The notes beneath the pieces were generated by a model. That model did no database searches and was not told the DNA's origin. It was given only the letters and a program-made list of their open reading frames with translations. Positions 1,332 to 14,378 of a stretch of DNA of 64,000 nt are shown here, piece after piece. Numbering within the stretch: the stretch's first letter is position 1; every line of letters starts with the position of its first letter. The position numbers and the translations under genes were made by a program. Source of the DNA: an uncultured Gemmatimonadales bacterium (lineage in GTDB: Bacteria > Gemmatimonadota > Gemmatimonadetes > Gemmatimonadales > GWC2-71-9); contig CAWCFX010000006.1 of the NCBI GenBank assembly GCA_963795085.1, positions 328,888 through 392,887 on the forward strand, written 5' to 3'.

Positions 1332-4300
1332 ATGTCTTTCGTCCATCTCCACACCCATAGTGAATTTTCCCTGCTGGACGGAGCCAACCGCATCCCGGAG
1401 CTGGTCAGCCACGTCAAGAAGCTGGGGATGGACAGCCTCGCCGTCACCGATCACGGCAATCTCCACGCCGCCTGGAGCTTCTACGAGGCGGCCCGGGCCC
1501 ACGGCATCCGGCCAATCCTGGGTTTCGAGGCGTACCTGGCCTTTGGGCCACGGACCGCGCAGGCCCGGCCCCAGTGGGCCCCCGCGGCCTACAGCCACCT
1601 GGTGCTGCTGGCCCAGAACCAGGCCGGCTACAAGAACCTGATCCGGCTCTCGTCTATCGGCTTCACCGAGGGGTTTTACCGCCGCCCCCGGATCGACAAG
1701 GACGTGCTGGCCCAGTACTCCGAGGGGATCGTCTGCCTGGCGGCCTGCCTCTCGGGCGAGGTGGCCCTCTGGCTTCGGCAGGGCAAGCTGGACGAGGCGA
1801 AGAAATCCGCCGAGTGGTTTGCCACCACGTTTGGGAAAGACCGGTTCTGGCTCGAGATCCAGAAACACGGGATCCCGGAGGAGGACCTGGTCACCGAGGG
1901 CATGCTGCGGCTGGGCCGGGAACTGGGCATCGGCGTGGTGGCCACCAACGATGCCCATTACCTCCGCCGGGAGGACGCCGAGGCGCATGATGTGCTCCTC
2001 GCCATCGGCACCGGCGCCGACCTGGACGACCCCAAGCGATTCCGGTTTACCGGGCAGGAATCCTACGTCAAGTCGGAAACGGAGATGCGGGAGCTGTTTC
2101 CGGAGCACCTGGAGACGCTGGAAAACACCCAGGCGGTCGCCAACCTCTGCGAGTTCAGCTTCGAGAAGAAGTACTTCCTGCCCCAGTTTCCCCGGCCCAA
2201 GGACTACTCGGACGACGCAACCCTGCTGGCCGATCTCGCCACGGCGGGGACCGAAGTGCGGTACGGCACTCCGCTGCCGGCCCCGGTCCGGGAACGCCTC
2301 GAGTTCGAGCTGGGCGTGATCAACACGGCGGGCTACGCCGGGTATTTCCTGATCGTGCAGGACTTCATCGCGGCGGCGCGGGCCCGCGGCATCCCGGTGG
2401 GGCCGGGCCGCGGTTCCGCCGCCGGCTCGATCGTCGCCTATGCCCTCGGCATCACCAACGTGGACCCGCTGAAGTTCGACCTTCTCTTTGAGCGGTTTCT
2501 CAACCCCGAGCGGGTGTCCATGCCGGATATCGACGTGGACTTCTGCTTCGAGCGGCGGGGCGAGGTCATCGAGTACGTGCGGGAACGCTATGGGCGGGAG
2601 AGCGTCGGCCAGATCATCACCTTCGGGACGTTGAAGGCCCGGGCCGCGCTCAAGGACGTCGCCCGGGTGCTAAAGATCCCGCCCGGGGAAGCCGACAAGA
2701 TCACCAAGCTGATTCCTTCGGGCCCCGCCTACAGCCTCACCATCAGCGAGGCCATGAAAAAGGTGGACGAGCTGCGGGACCTGGCCCGGGAGAACCCGCT
2801 CTACCGCCGGCTGGCTGATCTCGGGTCCCGGATTGAAGGCATCTCCCGGCATGCCTCGGTGCACGCGGCCGGCGTGGTGATCGCCCCGGGCCCCCTTTCC
2901 GATTATGTGCCGGTCTGTACCGCCCCCACCAAGGGCGCCGGGCAGACCGCGGGGGGCGAGGACGCGATCATCACCCAGTACGACATGGTCGCGCTGGAGA
3001 AGGTCGGCATGCTCAAGATGGACATGCTCGGCCTCAAGACGTTGACGGTGATCCACGATGCCGTGCACATGGTCAAGGACCGCCACGGCACCGCGCCGGA
3101 CATGGACGCCCTCGGCGAGTTCGACGATCCCGCGGTCTATGCCCTGCTCCGCCGGGGCCGCACCAGCGGGGTCTTCCAGTTCGAGTCGCCGCTGGCGACC
3201 GAGACGCTCCGCAACATGAAGTGCGACCGTTTCGACGACCTGGTCGCCTCCAACGCGCTGCTGCGGCCGGGCCCGCTCGACACCGGGATGCACCTGGTGT
3301 TCATCAAGCGGAAGCTGGGCCAGGAAGAGGTCCGCTACCCGCACCCCTCGCTCCGGGAAGTGCTGGAGCCGACCTATGGCGTCATCACCTACCAGGAACA
3401 GGTGATGCGGATCGCCAACATCATCGCCGGGTTCTCGCTCGCCGAAGCCGACGTGCTGCGGAAGGCGGTCGGCAAGAAGGACGCGGAGCTGATCAAGAAG
3501 GAACTGGGCAAGTTCGTGGAGCGGGCGGTCGCGCTCAAGATCGACCGGCGGCTGGCCGAGGACCTCGCGGGCCAGATCGAGACCTTCGGCCGCTACGGCT
3601 TCAACAAGTCGCACTCGGTGGCCTACTCGGTCCTGAGCTACCAGACCGCCTGGCTCAAGACCCACCACCCGGCCGAGTTCATGGCGGCGCTGCTCAGCTC
3701 GGAAATCGGCAACACCGACAAGGTGGTCCAGTACATCAACGAGGCCCGGGAACTGGGGCTCGAGGTGCTGCCCCCCAGCGTCAACGAGTCGGGCTTCAAG
3801 TTTACCGTGGTGGGCGAGACCCGGATCCGGTTCGGGCTGGGTGCGGTGCGAAACGTGGGCTGGGGCGCCATCGAATCCATCATCCACGCCCGGCACGAGG
3901 CGCCCTTTACCAGCCTGACCGACTTCGTCGAGCGGATCGACCTGCGACTCTGCAACAAGCGGGTGCTGGAGTCGCTGGTGGCGGCCGGGGCCTGCGACGC
4001 CCTGGGGGGGCACCGGGCCCAGATGGTCGCAGCCCTTGATGCGGTGCTCGCCGAAGCGCAACTTCAGCAGCAGGAACGGGACGCGGGGCAGGCCTCGCTC
4101 TTCGGGGAGGCGCTCCCGGTGGCCCAGTCCCGCGGGGCGGTGCTGCCGGAGATTCCCGACTGGTCCGAGGCCGAGCGGCTGACCCGGGAAAAAGAGGTGA
4201 TCGGCTTCTTCATCTCGGGCCACCCGCTGGAGCGGTTCCGCCACGAGGTCGAGCTGTTCGGCAGCCGGACCACGGCGACCCTGGGCGAATGGAGCGAGCA

Positions 4301-8678: not shown

Positions 8679-9593
8679 ATGACCAAACGCCGCTGGACGT
8701 TCGTCGTTTCTCCCCCAGGCTCGGGGGCCTCGAAGGTTTTCGAGTTCTCGACCCGCGCCCTGAAGGTGGCGGGAGGAGCGACGTTGATCGCCACCCTGGT
8801 GGCGTTGCTGCTGGGCTATTCCACGTTCTCCCGGTCGCTGCACCTGAGCCACGCCAACGCCGTCGAGCGGGAAAATTCCGAACTGAGCACCGAGATCGCC
8901 CGGCTGGGCGGCCGCATCGATTCACTGTCCGATACCCTGGACGCCATTGCCGTCCGGAACAGCCGGATCCGGCTGCTGGCCAATCTGGAGCCGATCGATC
9001 CCCAGGTCCTGATGGCAGGCATCGGCGGCCCGGAACGGCCGGGCCCGGAGGCGCAGACGGCGACCGCCCGTGAAACAGCCCGCGTGAAGGTCGACCTGAA
9101 CGCGCTGGTCCGGCGGGCCAACCTGCTGGCCGCCTCCTTCAAGGAAGCGGGGGACAGCCTCCAGTCGCACCGGGAGCGCCTCGCGGCCACCCCGTCCATC
9201 ATGCCCACCCAGGGCTGGCTCTCCAGCGCTTTCTCCCGGATGCGGGCGCACCCGGTGCTGCACATTTCGCGGCCCCACGAAGGCATCGACGTCAGCGCCC
9301 CGCAGGGCGCTCCCATCGAAGCGCCGGCCAACGGCACGGTGCTCCGCGCCGGCTGGGAAAATGGCTACGGCAATGTCATCGAAATCAACCACGGGTACGG
9401 GGTCGTCACCCGGTTCGCGCACGCCTCGAAACTGCTGGTCGGCCGCGGGCAGCGGGTCACCCGCGGGGAGCGGGTTGCCCTGGTCGGCTCTACCGGCCTG
9501 GCGACCGGCCCCCACCTGCACTACGAAGTGCACGTCAATGGCCGTCCCGTGGATCCCCTGCGCTACGTGCTGCCGGAAGCCATCGTCGACTGA
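8679..9593 (+). CDS. M23 family metallopeptidase (LytM-like)
   Basis: N-terminal TM segment, coiled-coil region, and C-terminal M23 motifs (HEGIDV..., GSTGLATGPHLHYEV). Confidence 0.85.
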   Translation: MTKRRWTFVVSPPGSGASKVFEFSTRALKVAGGATLIATLVALLLGYSTFSRSLHLSHANAVERENSELSTEIARLGGRIDSLSDTLDAIAVRNSRIRLLANLEPIDPQVLMAGIGGPERPGPEAQTATARETARVKVDLNALVRRANLLAASFKEAGDSLQSHRERLAATPSIMPTQGWLSSAFSRMRAHPVLHISRPHEGIDVSAPQGAPIEAPANGTVLRAGWENGYGNVIEINHGYGVVTRFAHASKLLVGRGQRVTRGERVALVGSTGLATGPHLHYEVHVNGRPVDPLRYVLPEAIVD

Positions 9594-10653
9594 CCCCGCG
9601 GCGCGCCCCCGCCAGCCAGCGCAGTTCCTGCCCAACCGCGCGGCCCAGGGCCTTCGTGATGGTCCAGGCCGGCGCGCCTCCGGTAAAGGCCGACGCGATC
9701 GCATAGAGAAACCGGGGGGAAAACCTGGCCCGGTTGCCGATGGCATAGACCGGCGCCCAATGGTCAGGCTGAAACTTGGCCTTGAACGCGTCCAGCCCGT
9801 CGAAGTCATAGAACCGGCGTCCATGCGCCCGCACCCATCCGAACACGCCTTCCATCCACCACTCTGACGGCACCGCCGGCAACACGGCGCGACGGGACAA
9901 CGGCGCGAGTCCCAGCGTGACATACCCGGCTCCGTCCACCACCATCCGGCTGGCCGCCGCTTCGATCAGGCTCTCCGACACTCCGTTCGGGGCGCCGGGC
10001 GCTCGGACCACCTGCTCGATGAGCCATCCCCGACGCGCCGGCACCGGGCTCGCCACCAGGAATCCGAGCACCGTGTCTCCCCGTTCTGCCACGAAGACCA
10101 TTCGGTCTTCCGGGTGCGAAAGGGTCTCGGGCTCCACGAGGAAATGCAGCGCGGGGAGGCCCCGGGTGCCCAGCCATCCCCGGAGAACCGCCTGGAGGCG
10201 AGGATTGTCCCGGACCAGGCCTGAGGGCCAGCAGGCGATCCGGATCCCCTTGTTCCGGGCCCGATGCAGCTGCGCCCGGAGGGACGCGTGCCGGTGGATG
10301 TAGCCGGCCAGGTTGGCCGGTTCCCAGGCCGGCTGGCCGCCGAGGACCACGGTGCAATGATGGGGCAGGAGCGCGCTCAGCTGCTGCAGCCGCTCCTCCG
10401 CGCCGAAGTAGCACACCAGGTCCCCGTGGTCCCGGGCCACCCCTTCGAACTCGGCCACGACATCCGCCAGCCGTTCGGGCCGCGCCACCGGCGCCCCGGC
10501 CACCACCCGCACCCCGGCGTGGCGCACGTACCCCACCAACGCATCACCCCGGGACGCGAACCAGTGCGCGATCCCGGGGTTGATGATCTGATACGCCGTG
10601 CTGTTCCACCCATGCTGAAGGATCAGGCCGCGGGCCCGTTCCGCCGAACTCAC
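9535..10653 (-). CDS. DUF2156 protein (stand-alone MprF C-terminal aminoacyl-phosphatidylglycerol synthase-like domain)
   Basis: 372 aa; the opening (LILQHGWNSTAYQIINPGIAHWF) and overall length fit DUF2156. There is no TM flippase part. The 3' end converges on and overlaps the M23 gene by 59 nt. Confidence 0.72.
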   Translation of the reverse strand: MSSAERARGLILQHGWNSTAYQIINPGIAHWFASRGDALVGYVRHAGVRVVAGAPVARPERLADVVAEFEGVARDHGDLVCYFGAEERLQQLSALLPHHCTVVLGGQPAWEPANLAGYIHRHASLRAQLHRARNKGIRIACWPSGLVRDNPRLQAVLRGWLGTRGLPALHFLVEPETLSHPEDRMVFVAERGDTVLGFLVASPVPARRGWLIEQVVRAPGAPNGVSESLIEAAASRMVVDGAGYVTLGLAPLSRRAVLPAVPSEWWMEGVFGWVRAHGRRFYDFDGLDAFKAKFQPDHWAPVYAIGNRARFSPRFLYAIASAFTGGAPAWTITKALGRAVGQELRWLAGARRGVSRRWLPAARSAGDPRDGH

Positions 10654-10689
10654 GACCGGGTCACCGGCCGCGCTCCACGAAACGAATCC

Positions 10690-11259
10690 TCAGAACTGGA
10701 CTTTGGGAACTTCCTCCGCTCCGGCCGTGGTCTCGAAATACTTCCGGGGCGCGCCATGGCCGAACATCTTGGCGGTCAGGTTATACGGAAACCGACGGAT
10801 ATAGGAGTTGAACGCCTCGACCGACGCATTGTAGTCCTGCCGGGCCACCGAGATCCGGTTCTCGGTCCCGGTCAGTTCATCCTGCAGCTGCAAGAAGTTC
10901 TGGTTGCTCTTGAGTTCGGGATAGGCCTCTGCGATGGCCAGGAGGCGGGACAACGGCGCCGTGAGGGCCGCGTTGGCCTCCGCCATCTCCTCGACACTCC
11001 CGGACTGGACCGCGCCGGCCAGCCGGCCGCGCGCCTCCGCCACCCGGATGAAAATGGTGGATTCCTGCTGGGCGAACCCCTTGACCGTCGCCACCAGGTT
11101 GGGAACCAGGTCGGCCCGGCGCTGCAACTGAGCCTTGATGTTGCCCTCGGCCTTGTTGACGTTCTCGTCCAGCGTCTGGATCGTGTTATAGCCGCAGCCG
11201 GTCGCGAGCAGCAGCACCATGGCCGTCAGCGGCAACCTGAACGATCGTGACCGTGTCAT
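10690..11259 (-). CDS. lemA: LemA family protein
   Basis: 189 aa; N-terminal anchor with lipobox-like LLATGC, then the typical LemA body (AQLQRRADLVPNLV, YNASVEAFNSYIRRFP). The ATGA junction overlaps the upstream gene's stop. Confidence 0.9.
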   Translation of the reverse strand: MTRSRSFRLPLTAMVLLLATGCGYNTIQTLDENVNKAEGNIKAQLQRRADLVPNLVATVKGFAQQESTIFIRVAEARGRLAGAVQSGSVEEMAEANAALTAPLSRLLAIAEAYPELKSNQNFLQLQDELTGTENRISVARQDYNASVEAFNSYIRRFPYNLTAKMFGHGAPRKYFETTAGAEEVPKVQF

Positions 11260-11975
11260 TCCTCAGCTCCCAGTTGAAGTTCGTCCACCTGCGTTACCGT
11301 CCGCTCGACGGCCGAAAGATAGCCCTCGAACCGCTCGCGCGGGCACTTCCACCCGGCGTCGGCCCGGTGTGCCGCGATCTCCTGCAGGATTTCGGCGTCG
11401 AAGCCGGCCACTTCGCCGGCCCGGGCCAGGACCTCCGCGAAGCTGGCGGGCACCGGGTGGCCGGTCAGGACCAGCAGGCCGCGATAGAGTACCGCAATGG
11501 TCGCGATGCTGTGGCGGGCGATGTCGCCCAGGCTCTGGGGATCCCGCTCGCTGGGAACGAAGGCCTGCCGCAGCCGGTTGAGTTTGCCCCGGAATTCGCG
11601 TTCCAGCGCCCGGCGCAGGTCGCTCCGGCGGGCCGACATCTCCGCCACGGGGTCAGCCCCCCGAAGGACCCGGTAGGCCGTCTTCATGTCCGTGATCTCC
11701 ACCGGGAACACGTCGCCGGCCCGGCGCCACTCGGCGCGCGTCATGAGCAGGGGGGGCGGTCGTTTCCGGCTGACCCACGCGGAGAAGGGCGGCTCCAGGC
11801 TGAGCAGCACCGCCGGGGCCAGGCTTTCCAGCACCAGCATGAGATTGATGTCCGAGAAGCCGGCGACGTGCTCGCCCCGCACCACCGATCCGTACAGTAC
11901 CGCGCTGTACCCGGGGCCCGCCGCCGCATCGATCTCCGCCAGGAACGGCTCCACCACTTCTGTCGTCAGGCTCAT
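11256..11975 (-). CDS. nucleotidyltransferase-domain protein (Pol-beta superfamily) with helical C-terminal domain; degenerate catalytic motif
   Basis: 239 aa. LYGSVVRGEHVAGFSDINLMLVL matches hG[GS]x9-13Dh[DE]h except that the second carboxylate is Asn. Start and stop overlap the TPM gene (1 nt) and lemA (4 nt). Confidence 0.62.
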   Translation of the reverse strand: MSLTTEVVEPFLAEIDAAAGPGYSAVLYGSVVRGEHVAGFSDINLMLVLESLAPAVLLSLEPPFSAWVSRKRPPPLLMTRAEWRRAGDVFPVEITDMKTAYRVLRGADPVAEMSARRSDLRRALEREFRGKLNRLRQAFVPSERDPQSLGDIARHSIATIAVLYRGLLVLTGHPVPASFAEVLARAGEVAGFDAEILQEIAAHRADAGWKCPRERFEGYLSAVERTVTQVDELQLGAEE

Positions 11976-12904
11976 CAGAAACGTCCTCCCGCGCCACCGC
12001 CGCTGAATCCTCCGCCACCCCCGAACCCGCCAAACCCGCCGCCGCCGCCGAACCCGCCACCACCCCAGCCCCCGCCCCCACGCCCCCCGCCGCCCATCCC
12101 TCCCCAGAATATCCCGGGGCCGAACAACCCGCCCCGCCGGCGCCGACCCCGCCCGCCCCGGCCTCCACCTCCCGACCGCAGGATCAGGATCACGATAATC
12201 AGGATGACCAGCGGCACCATCTGGCCGAGGGGATTGCGGTCGGCGGCGGGCCGCCGCGCCAACTCCGGAGCCGCAGCGGTGAGCGCCGAATCGGTGACCC
12301 CATATCCGGCAGCGATCAGCGCGGCCAGCGCCCGGACCCCTGTCAGCGCGGCTGGGCCATAGCGCTCCCCGACGAGGTCGGGGCGCATCAGTTCGCGCAC
12401 CTGTCCCGCCTGCCCGTCGGTGACCATCCCTTCGATCCCCTGCCCCGTCGCAATGAAGATGGCACCGGTCCCCGGCCGGCCACCCTGCCGAGGCACGATC
12501 AGCAGCACCACGCCGTTGTTACGGCGGGAGTCTCCCACCTCGGCCCGGGCTCCCACCCCCCAGGCCCGGCCGATTTGGAGCGCGACATCGCTCTCCGGAT
12601 AATCGCCGATGGTGGGAAGGGTGACCACGGCGATCTCGGCGCTGGTGGCGCTCCGCAACCGCCCGATCAGGTCGGTGGCAGCGGCCGCGGAGGCCGGATC
12701 GATAATACCGGCCACGTCGGTGACGAGACCGGCGGGACGGCCGGGGAACAGCCCAGTGATGCCGGAGCCCTGTCCCTGGGCCGGAAACGCCCCCGTCAGT
12801 TGTAGCAGCAGCAACAGCCCGATAGCTTTGGGCCACCCGGTGCGCCCGTGCCGGCATGGGCCTGGACTGACCTGCGAGATGACTGTGCCGAAGATCGCTC
12901 TCAT
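11975..12904 (-). CDS. TPM domain protein (YgcG-like) with Gly-rich C-terminal tail
   Basis: Signal-like segment, TPM body (GLVTDVAGIIDP...VVTLPTIGDY...VVLLIVPRQ), a TM segment, then a GGGRGG/GGFGG tail. Start chosen at ATG 12904; the listed longest ORF reaches 12982. Confidence 0.72.
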   Translation of the reverse strand: MRAIFGTVISQVSPGPCRHGRTGWPKAIGLLLLLQLTGAFPAQGQGSGITGLFPGRPAGLVTDVAGIIDPASAAAATDLIGRLRSATSAEIAVVTLPTIGDYPESDVALQIGRAWGVGARAEVGDSRRNNGVVLLIVPRQGGRPGTGAIFIATGQGIEGMVTDGQAGQVRELMRPDLVGERYGPAALTGVRALAALIAAGYGVTDSALTAAAPELARRPAADRNPLGQMVPLVILIIVILILRSGGGGRGGRGRRRRGGLFGPGIFWGGMGGGGRGGGGWGGGGFGGGGGFGGFGGGGGFSGGGAGGRF

Positions 12905-13616
12905 TGCACTCCTGCTGCTGGCCGCCTGCGAACAACCGGCCGTGACCGTTCGCGCCAGTGTGCCGCGGCTGGACGGCGGCACGGCGCCATTGCCGGACCT
13001 CGAACTGATTGCGCTGCCCTATGACCGGGACAGCGTGCTCGCCACGCTGGAGGCGAAGGCCTCTCCCCGGCCGCACACCAGGGAACTGGACAGCCTCTTT
13101 GCGCTCTGGCGGGATCCGTTCGTCCGCTTCGCCGCCGCCACCGGGAGGAGCCACCAGCTGCGAGATTCACTCGCCTCCCTCAAACAACAACTGGACTCCC
13201 TCCCGCGCAACTCGGCGGACTACACGGCGCGCTATCAGAGCTTCGGAAGGCTCACCGACACGCTCGCCGCCGTGACCGATTCCGGCGAAAAAGCCCGTCT
13301 CCAGCTCGATCGGCTCCGAAAGACCGTGCTCCCCGCGATCGACTCGCTGCGCCGAATCGTGACGGAGTGGGAAAATAGCACCTTCCGCGAGTATGAAGAC
13401 ATTGTGCGGCGGCTGGGCGAGCGGCGGGCCCCGATCGCGGCCCGCACCGGCCCGGCGGGCCAGGCGACGATCACGCTGGGCCCGGGAGACTGGTGGATCT
13501 ACGCCTGGGCCTGGGACGAGGGCGATCCCTACTCCCGCTGGTACTGGAATGTGCCGGTGCGGGGAGACGATGTGGTGCTGGACGGGACGACCGGGAGAAA
13601 AAGACCGCAGTACTGA
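12879..13616 (+). CDS. hypothetical lipoprotein
   Basis: Internal ATG at 12879 gives MTVPKIALIALLLLAAC|EQ, a classic lipoprotein signal. The longer listed ORF (12609) runs antisense through the TPM gene. No family recognised. Confidence 0.62.
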   Translation: MTVPKIALIALLLLAACEQPAVTVRASVPRLDGGTAPLPDLELIALPYDRDSVLATLEAKASPRPHTRELDSLFALWRDPFVRFAAATGRSHQLRDSLASLKQQLDSLPRNSADYTARYQSFGRLTDTLAAVTDSGEKARLQLDRLRKTVLPAIDSLRRIVTEWENSTFREYEDIVRRLGERRAPIAARTGPAGQATITLGPGDWWIYAWAWDEGDPYSRWYWNVPVRGDDVVLDGTTGRKRPQY

Positions 13617-13619
13617 GAA

Positions 13620-13682
13620 GTGCAGCGTGCAGAGTGCAGCGTGCAGCGTGCAGGGTGCAGAGTGCAGCGTGCAGCGTGCAGC
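13620..13682 (+). repeat. tandem heptamer array (GTGCAGN)x9
   Basis: Read directly: gtgcagc gtgcaga gtgcagc gtgcagc gtgcagg gtgcaga gtgcagc gtgcagc gtgcagc, starting 4 nt after the lipoprotein stop. Confidence 0.9.
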
Positions 13683-13712
13683 GTGGATCCAGGATAATGG
13701 GGGAGGGAACCA

Positions 13713-14378
13713 ATGTCTCGAGTATTTGTGTTTTCCGCGTCGGCGGTGGTGCTGGCTGGGGTTTTTCTGCTGACCCGGCCCGGCGCCGGCACGCCGGGGG
13801 TGCCGGACAGTGTGGCTACGGGGGACACCCTGGACCTCTTGATCGCCCAGCGCAGCAAGGGATCGCCGGCGGCACCGATCGCGGTGTTCGAGATGTCCGA
13901 TTTCCAATGCCCTTTCTGCCGCCGGCATGCGCTGGAGACCTTTCCCGACCTGGACCGGCGCTATATCCAGACCGGCAAGGTCCGGTGGACCTTCGTCAAC
14001 TTTCCCATCCCCGAGATTCACCCCAATGCTACGGCCGCGGCGGAGTTCAGCATGTGCGCCGCGAAGATTGGCAAGTTCTGGCCGGTGCACGACCTGATTT
14101 TTGAGCACCAGGATGCCTGGAAGTCGCTGGGAGACCCGGGGCCCTTCCTCATCGGGCTGGCTGACTCGGCCGGCATCCGGCGGGGGGATATCCTGCCCTG
14201 CCTGGAGAATGGAGAAACGCGGGAATTGGTCCGGACCGAGGCGGAGGAGGTGGCGCGGGTGGGGATTCAGAGCACCCCCACCTTCGTGATCGAAGGGAAA
14301 CTGCTCCGCGGCGCGGCGCCGCTGGAGGTCTTTACCGCGATCTTTGATTCGATCTACGCGGCCCGGACCGGGGACTGA
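13713..14378 (+). CDS. DsbA-family thiol:disulfide oxidoreductase (thioredoxin fold)
   Basis: N-terminal TM/signal segment and a CPFC active site in the context FEMSDFQCPFCRRH; 221 aa. Confidence 0.8.
   Translation: MSRVFVFSASAVVLAGVFLLTRPGAGTPGVPDSVATGDTLDLLIAQRSKGSPAAPIAVFEMSDFQCPFCRRHALETFPDLDRRYIQTGKVRWTFVNFPIPEIHPNATAAAEFSMCAAKIGKFWPVHDLIFEHQDAWKSLGDPGPFLIGLADSAGIRRGDILPCLENGETRELVRTEAEEVARVGIQSTPTFVIEGKLLRGAAPLEVFTAIFDSIYAARTGD

Follow-up and report, generated by a model that had tools for sequence, protein, structure and literature searches.

Few bacterial envelope proteins of unknown function are as widespread as LemA and TPM (YgcG-like) proteins; some TPM proteins are reported to have phosphatase activity. 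LemA and TPM genes form a canonical LemA-TPM(-TPM) cluster, in which both families are encoded on one strand in tight linkage. In the annotated loci of Burkholderia pBVIE02 and of a Phenylobacterium plasmid, the order is LemA, TPM, TPM and no nucleotidyltransferase (NTase) is present. MamQ, a relative of LemA, is required for magnetosome membrane formation, and the C-terminal domain of both LemA and MamQ is predicted to be extracytoplasmic (PMC3905215). An F. columnare mutant under envelope stress induces lemA together with a TPM gene (PMC13236525), which is the sole functional hint for the pair in the literature that we searched. Here we analysed a 64,000-nucleotide (nt) stretch from an uncultured Gemmatimonadales bacterium (hereafter the window, to which all coordinates refer; G+C 63-70%). 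In this window the same two families, again tightly linked on one strand, are separated by an NTase-like protein with a degenerate active site, and the order is TPM, NTase-like, LemA.

The three genes and the one that follows them are all on the minus strand. The TPM-domain protein (11975-12904; 309 aa; Pfam PF04536 TPM_phosphatase, E=4e-20) starts at the ATG at 12904. An upstream GTG at 12982 was considered as its start and dropped in favour of this ATG, whose 309-aa product was independently called: a second assembly of the same sequence, with a separate gene call, also gives a TPM of 309 aa abutting a 239-aa gene. The latter corresponds to the NTase-like protein (11256-11975; 239 aa), and is followed by the LemA-family protein (10690-11259; 189 aa; PF04011, E=5e-54). 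The TPM stop and the NTase start overlap by 1 nt in a TGATG junction (11973-11977), with a Shine-Dalgarno-like GGGAGGA 8 nt upstream of the NTase start. The NTase stop and the LemA start overlap by 4 nt in an ATGA junction (11256-11259), with GAGGA directly upstream. At both junctions the Shine-Dalgarno-like GGAGG/GAGGA strings are placed within the upstream gene. Beyond the LemA stop, a 36-nt gap (10654-10689) leads to the GTG start of a stand-alone DUF2156 gene, which resembles the synthase domain of MprF/LpiA (9535-10653; 372 aa; PF09924 LPG_synthase_C, E=4e-34). The gene order, the two overlaps, the 36-nt gap and the signature G-S-x11-D-I-N given in an initial annotation of this DNA were all found in the sequence. 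A promoter and terminator scan gave no signal above shuffle expectation.

This arrangement is conserved in Gemmatimonadales. When each GTDB species was represented by a single genome, 210 genomes were found to encode a relative of the NTase-like protein. The best 80 of them were examined and belong to Gemmatimonadota throughout, save one contig labelled Bacillota. Using the window proteins as tblastn queries, we observed the order TPM, NTase, LemA in essentially every Gemmatimonadales locus with enough flanking sequence. The wider synteny is also shared: genes for a DsbA-like protein and a hypothetical lipoprotein diverge from the trio on the TPM side, and genes for an M23 peptidase and MetRS converge with it on the LemA side. 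The called genes of two surveyed loci, L001 and L002, agree with this synteny, and the core-genome neighbourhood, with MetRS, the M23 peptidase, the DsbA-like protein and KdtA, is stable over the 80 species. The contig labelled as a Bacillota metagenome-assembled genome (MAG) (L023, JBLMWC010000125.1) carries the whole Gemmatimonadales synteny of DsbA, hypothetical protein, TPM, NTase, LemA, M23 peptidase and MetRS, with 51-70% identity to the window proteins, and is probably mis-binned.

Since gene order within Gemmatimonadales alone could reflect frozen synteny, we turned to a distant subfamily of the NTase-like protein, about 31% identical to that of the window, whose named members are from Pontiella (Kiritimatiellota), Verrucomicrobiota and Acidobacteriota. 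Pontiella sulfatireligans displays TPM-TPM-NTase-LemA, with flanks wholly different from those of Gemmatimonadales. An Acidobacteriota MAG and a third distant contig, of 6.5 Mb, both carry TPM-NTase-LemA between unrelated flanks. These three, together with 80 metagenome loci from a scan seeded with other branches, constitute a set of 83 non-Gemmatimonadales loci, whose neighbouring genes were typed by hidden Markov models built iteratively from the loci. Where the sequence extends at least 800 nt upstream of the NTase gene, TPM is the immediate upstream neighbour in 49 of 53 loci; where it extends at least 350 nt downstream, LemA is the immediate downstream neighbour in 56 of 68. The arrangement seen in the window is displayed by more than 130 related loci. 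The junctions recur as well: TPM stop and NTase start overlap by 1 nt in 56/106 related loci, with a zero gap in 10 more, and NTase stop and LemA start share ATGA in 60/112, another 18 overlapping by 1 nt.

Recurrence in several phyla puts this arrangement far beyond what chance would produce. The trio is a conserved, translationally coupled unit in at least Gemmatimonadota, Kiritimatiellota and Acidobacteriota. Translational coupling had been proposed from the window alone, and over half of the loci are now seen to have the overlaps. Likewise, the insertion of an NTase gene between TPM and LemA, which might have been unique to this genome, turns out to be conserved in Gemmatimonadales and recurrent in other phyla. 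TPM-NTase-LemA is therefore a recurrent architecture distinct from the NTase-less LemA-TPM-TPM order of the annotated Proteobacteria loci. The NTase-like gene does not appear to be mobile, since a tblastn search of plasmids and phages gave no match. In the literature searched we found no description of the TPM-NTase-LemA trio, but coverage was incomplete and a prior description elsewhere is possible. It is apparently an undescribed three-component version of the LemA/TPM cluster, with a pseudo-NTase family that no model covers.

The locus of Pontiella sulfatireligans (L084, 3274-4907) contains two tandem TPM paralogues upstream of the NTase-like gene, the second of which was missed by the precomputed Pfam annotation. 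Each consists of a signal peptide, a TPM domain, a transmembrane helix and a Gly-rich tail whose last residues are SSGGW. Other loci depart from the common order. In six of them (L110, L119, L120, L144, L147 and L149) TPM and NTase are separated by an 8-nt gap, a DsbA-like gene is nearby and LemA is absent within 3 kb; in this group LemA may lie elsewhere in the genome or have been lost. In L120 and L147 the downstream convergent genes are efflux-like (HlyD-, TolC- and TetR-like), as judged from translations alone. In L128, a 128-aa protein (3005-3388) takes the place of LemA after the NTase. It has one hydrophobic segment and a Gly-rich C-terminus (…GGFGSDGGFGGRPGF), and so resembles a TPM tail minus the TPM domain. 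A plasmid of Bacteroides ovatus (L168, 3441-5009) pairs LemA with an M48-family metallopeptidase instead of TPM, in what looks like a recurrent partnership.

Candidate Rosetta-stone fusions, namely P0258 ('TPM+NT'), P0238 ('NT+LemA'), P0225, P0242 and P0161, were rejected, their extra parts being Arg-rich out-of-frame translations or frameshifted. Such false N-terminal extensions or 'fusions' of the NTase gene arise because the GC-rich region encoding the Gly-rich tail has open alternative frames. In P0161, P0225, P0242 and P0258 these frames yield Arg-rich strings (…RRRRIQRRRRRREILM).

The NTase-like protein itself is poorly covered by existing models. Pfam gave only NTP_transf_2 (E=0.012, under its cut-off), NCBIfam gave no match, and the best hit of a PDB sequence search was an archaeal minimal NTase (E=0.89). 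Yet homologues are abundant. A search of a 90%-clustered database returned 765 matches, the top 120 of which are all about 239 aa long and at least 50% identical, and every named homologue in that search is from Gemmatimonadota. A profile search of 1.84 billion representatives extended the family to 3,496 clusters at 50% identity (E<=1e-3), of which 2,462 pass E<=1e-10 and 471 pass E<=1e-30. A further family profile search mostly returned the Pontiella-type subfamily again and added little. The protein thus defines a large family covered by no Pfam, NCBIfam or PDB entry.

At the level of fold, the initial annotation had proposed a Pol-beta-type NTase with a helical C-domain, and on this the AlphaFold2 model (pLDDT, the predicted local distance difference test, of 93.7; predicted TM-score 0.89; alignment of 50 sequences) and Foldseek agree. 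The model comprises an N-terminal alpha/beta NTase domain (about 11646-11975, minus strand) and a C-terminal helical domain (about 11280-11627, minus strand). Its strands and helices follow the order expected of a Pol-beta-type core (alpha-beta-alpha-beta-alpha-beta), and the hG[GS] motif before helix 2 is present as G29-S30, invariant across the family. In Foldseek searches against the PDB, the best match is Hailong HalB (E=1.6e-4, TM 0.46/0.53); AadA/ANT(3'')(9)/AAD(9) give TM 0.51-0.61 and ANT(4')/KNTase TM 0.33-0.49, and MNT antitoxins match the N-terminal domain alone. As far as the predicted structure allows, we place the protein in the Pol-beta-type NTase superfamily, its nearest architecture being, according to the same model, that of the two-domain ANT/KNTase class.

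Resemblance to the described enzymes stops at the catalytic residues. AadA and ANT(4')/KNTase share with the NTase-like protein a Pol-beta-type N-domain and a helical C-domain of similar size. Sequence alignment with AadA/ANT is limited to the N-terminal ~45 residues, G-S motif included (E about 3e-4), and the C-domain has no sequence similarity. The signature G29-S30-x11-D42-I43-N44 (11844-11891, minus strand) corresponds to a degenerate active-site motif. When a profile of 69 diverse family members is compared with AadA and MNT proteins, SDlNlLv sits on SDIDLLV, so that N44 aligns with their second metal-binding Asp. As had been noticed for the window protein, the second metal-binding carboxylate is replaced by Asn, and this holds family-wide: among 316 members, positions 41/42/44 read S-D-x-N in 261, S-N-x-N in 28 and S-D-x-D in 4. 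Asn at the second catalytic position characterises the whole family and is no local mutation. The [DE]-h-[DE]-h pair that a catalytically competent NTase carries on beta-2 was thus not found.

Two further carboxylates are affected. S-N-x-N, which accounts for ~9% of the family, occurs in 15 of 83 Gemmatimonadales species, all with unchanged TPM-NTase-LemA context; in these species, with S-N-I-N, both canonical Asp residues are gone and the remaining invariant residues are kept. The replacement of S-D-I-N by S-N-I-N is seen in L013-L016, L021, L022, L024, L025, L030, L033, L039, L069, L075, L082 and others. Carboxylate 42 is dispensable for the role of the NTase-like protein there, since the operon context does not change. 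The third carboxylate of canonical NTases lies on beta-3 (E87 in AadA). In the model, DSSP assigns beta-3 to residues 76-79, within P74-P75-L76-L77-M78-T79. P75 is near-invariant among the 316 members and the family pattern is P-L-L-x-T/S, position 79 being mostly T/S and acidic in a rare minority. From alignment and secondary structure, the beta-3 carboxylate therefore seems to be lacking. Compared with AadA/ANT, the family thus differs by the change of the second Asp to Asn, by the absence of a beta-3 carboxylate and by a first Asp that is dispensable in ~9% of members.

A second hallmark, D88-V-F-P-V-E93-I-T-D96 (11688-11714, minus strand; consensus D[VAI]F[PA][ILVM]E..D), is as strongly conserved, D88, F90, E93 and D96 being invariant or nearly so. 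Over the family, the invariant residues are G29, S30, D88, E93, D96, R121, E125, E127, R136, R165 and D231, and G106 and S156 are also highly conserved. Such invariance points to a site under constraint and not to gene decay. Canonical two-metal catalysis is thus predicted to be unlikely, and a specific binding site would be maintained. In three metagenome loci (L124, L152 and L153) the S-D-x-N motif is wholly lost and TPM is kept upstream. They represent a divergent branch (L124, 3453-4178; L152; L153, 2215-3051; YGSAVASGLVDDDVPKKVLVVL), in which two or three TPM genes precede the NTase gene of L124 and one precedes that of L152 and of L153; none has LemA downstream.

The three proteins would be distributed on both sides of the membrane. 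The TPM protein has a signal-peptide-like N-terminus with a hydrophobic core (12797-12826), a TPM domain (12320-12724; 72.5 bits against a PF04536 cut-off of 22.1), a single transmembrane helix (12179-12220) and a tail that is Arg-rich, then Gly-rich, and ends in GGRF (11978-12178), all encoded on the minus strand. A motif FGGFGGGGxFxGGGAxGx[FW] was seen by eye in roughly 30 TPM tails, without a tally. As the Arg cluster follows the transmembrane helix, the tail is expected to be cytoplasmic and the TPM domain periplasmic: TPM would be exported and held by one helix, exposing to the cytoplasm the Arg/Gly-rich tail only. LemA (182.6 bits against a Pfam cut-off of 26.2, which places it in the family) begins here with a lipoprotein-type signal, MTRSRSFR...LLATGC, whose lipobox lies at 11194-11211 (minus strand). 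The MamQ model of NCBIfam gives it 104.9 bits against a cut-off of 250, and it is thus not a MamQ. A lipobox followed by GYN (L-x-x-G-C-G-Y-N) is found in 70/73 Gemmatimonadales LemA orthologues, and in most other lineages LemA carries MKK and a transmembrane anchor. Either anchor argues that the LemA domain is outside the cytoplasm; LemA would be a periplasmic lipoprotein here and be anchored by an N-terminal helix in other lineages. An N-terminal anchor of LemA, like the TPM architecture seen here and in Pontiella, is shared with the canonical LemA-TPM cluster. The NTase-like protein has neither signal peptide nor transmembrane segment and, lacking an export signal, is expected to be cytoplasmic. 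The module would thus span the membrane, with two periplasmic domains and one cytoplasmic NTase-fold protein.

What goes beyond a conserved, co-expressed trio with a degenerate NTase, we infer. The explanation that we find best, and to which we give about even confidence, is a conserved coupled TPM-NTase-LemA operon in which the middle product is probably a non-catalytic ligand-binding subunit. This putative subunit, non-catalytic or at least non-canonical, would bind a ligand by means of its retained G-S motif and the conserved Arg residues of its helical domain; this ligand is probably a nucleotide. The subunit would couple to the membrane-anchored TPM and LemA from the cytoplasmic side, possibly via the TPM tail, and would link the cytoplasmic state to an envelope-maintenance function. 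The initial annotation had already raised the idea of a binding or regulatory subunit, which gains support from the loss of the first Asp in ~9% of members and from the missing beta-3 carboxylate. A favoured functional analogy is mitochondrial MiD51, an NTase-fold pseudoenzyme that binds nucleotide without transfer. MiD51 too combines an NTase fold devoid of catalytic carboxylates with a role as membrane adaptor or receptor, but it is eukaryotic and has no detectable homology beyond the fold, and ligand binding is putative here.

More tentatively, many Gram-negative phyla could have a trans-membrane TPM/LemA machine whose third, cytoplasmic and hitherto unrecognised subunit comes from the S-D-x-N family. 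That subunit would act either as a nucleotide-sensing pseudoenzyme that gates envelope maintenance, or as an enzyme with a new active site that makes or attaches a nucleotide-derived group. If true, this would be the first mechanistic entry into the LemA/TPM pair. A coupled cytoplasmic partner with a degenerate nucleotide-binding fold makes this pair experimentally approachable: one can ask whether the protein has ATP or another nucleotide as its ligand, whether it touches the TPM tail and whether its loss phenocopies that of lemA or TPM. The current label 'nucleotidyltransferase' probably overstates the chemistry of the family.

Several points weigh against a non-catalytic subunit coupled to TPM and LemA. 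Physical coupling is only putative, because the membrane separates the NTase from the folded parts of TPM and LemA. When the last 45 residues of the TPM tail were joined to the N-terminus of the NTase in an AlphaFold2 prediction, no docking was obtained and the tail had a pLDDT below 50; this is a weak test, the tail being without alignment depth and the prediction without predicted aligned error. LemA is not beside the NTase in ~18% of informative loci. As to catalysis, D42 is kept in about 83% of family members, Asn is able to ligate Mg2+, and the invariant acids D88, E93, D96, E125 and E127 could, from their conservation, form an alternative catalytic centre. A serious alternative, which we nevertheless consider rather doubtful, is thus an active NTase with an unconventional site. 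G-S, S41, D/N42 and N44 would place the nucleoside triphosphate (NTP), D88/E93/D96 and/or E125/E127 would provide metal ligands and base, and a protein, lipid or small molecule tied to TPM/LemA would be nucleotidylylated; TPM, with its putative phosphatase fold, could reverse the reaction or process its product. The invariant G29-S30, the frequent D42 and the set of invariant charged residues (D88, E93, D96, R121, E125, E127, R136, R165 and D231) fit such an enzyme, as does the ANT-like two-domain cleft architecture; in KNTase, the catalytic base comes from the helical domain. The few S-D-x-D members suggest, moreover, that position 44 is still at a metal site. However, the 28 S-N-x-N members share the same operon, the proteins of L124, L152 and L153 lack the motif and still have TPM upstream, beta-3 is without an acidic residue, and the membrane would stand between writer and eraser, TPM being periplasmic and the NTase cytoplasmic.

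The remaining alternatives place the NTase-like gene in other contexts, or extend the operon. Hailong is an NTase paired with a membrane protein (PMC13434031), and if a HalB- or MNT-like NTase controlled a membrane effector here, as in Hailong or HEPN-MNT systems, the locus would be an anti-phage or toxin-antitoxin-like one. HalB, likewise an NTase-fold protein whose gene adjoins that of a membrane protein, is indeed the best structural match, and PADLOC gives weak matches to MNT-like candidate models. For the window protein these matches cover the generic N-terminal ~40 residues only, with E of 1e-4 or weaker, and PADLOC gives it no Hailong match. Moreover, HalB is, according to PDB entry titles, an active poly-dA synthase dependent on D21/D23, and this catalytic D-x-D is not conserved here. 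Its partner is the HalA channel in a defence island, whereas the NTase-like protein is found with TPM and LemA in a core-genome neighbourhood stable over 80 species, with no HEPN or HalA partner and no plasmid or phage homologue by tblastn. Minimal NTases (HEPN-MNT antitoxins, HI0073, AF0614) are alike in sequence and fold of the N-domain, but they are about 100-130 aa long, keep D-x-D and have a HEPN toxin as partner, none of which applies to a 239-aa protein with its own helical domain and TPM and LemA as neighbours. We therefore disfavour a defence function as highly improbable.

An accidental neighbour, for instance an aminoglycoside-resistance ANT lodged between TPM and LemA, is suggested by the resemblance of the fold to AadA and ANT(4'). 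It is refuted by the neighbourhood survey and hardly conceivable, since adjacency is kept across phyla with overlapping stop and start codons. In addition, no ANT or DUF4111 model of Pfam or NCBIfam matches the NTase-like protein, its catalytic residues are degenerate and, in contrast to AadA/ANT, it is associated with neither resistance genes nor plasmids. Size, partners, motif and context together led us to reject an MNT antitoxin or an aminoglycoside-resistance gene. Retention of DxD in homologues belonging to a known antitoxin or resistance family would have counted against the initial annotation, and the family displays neither.

A four-gene envelope or lipid-modification module, with the aminoacyl-phosphatidylglycerol-synthase-like DUF2156 protein working with the trio, had been proposed as well. 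In its favour, the DUF2156 gene is on the same strand, 36 nt after LemA, with no terminator-like site in the interval, two other loci (L004 and L005) show the same placement, and the protein aligns full-length to MprF/LpiA synthase domains. Yet DUF2156 follows LemA in only 3/167 sites: the window, L004 and L005, the last two with NTases that share 61-62% identity with that of the window. It is found in none of the other 81 of the 83 Gemmatimonadales loci, including L001, whose NTase is closer (70% identical), and in none of the 83 loci from other lineages. In relatives devoid of it, LemA is directly followed by the convergent M23 peptidase gene. The DUF2156 gene may be co-transcribed with the trio here, but it is a later, lineage-specific insertion and not a member of the conserved module. 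A four-gene module is thus very unlikely, and 'lipid modification', for which this lineage-specific gene was the sole basis, is not retained.

The DUF2156 protein is itself soluble and clearly related to the synthase domain of MprF/LpiA. It scores 118.5 bits with PF09924 (cut-off 27.5), and its full-length alignment to the LpiA/MprF catalytic domains (PDB 5vrv/6lv0/7duw) has an E of about 1e-12. It differs from MprF/LpiA by the absence of the flippase/transmembrane domain, no hydrophobic segment being visible by eye, and by its score with the NCBIfam MprF model NF033480 (54 bits against a cut-off of 600), so that it is not an MprF equivalog. Unlike the partners within the module, it is not conserved with the trio. 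The convergent genes for DUF2156 (minus strand) and the M23 peptidase (8679-9593, plus strand) share 59 nt at their 3' ends (9535-9593), which fits a later insertion of DUF2156 into a short intergenic space. In L004, the open reading frame of DUF2156 also overlaps a convergent one, of 624 aa.

On the other side of the trio, a gene divergent from TPM (12879-13616, plus strand) encodes a hypothetical protein of ~245 aa with a lipoprotein signal (MTVPKIALIALLLLAAC) and without Pfam match. It adjoins the trio in 73 Gemmatimonadales loci, against 1 of the 83 other loci. With its start at 12879, its 5' end overlaps that of TPM by ~26 nt; an alternative call from the GTG at 12942 gives 224 aa and a 37-nt gap to TPM. 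The stop of this gene (13616) is separated from the DsbA-like gene, which starts at 13713, by a gap filled with a perfect-register tandem repeat of the heptamer GTGCAGC/GTGCAGA (13620-13685), with 9.4 copies and 91% matches.

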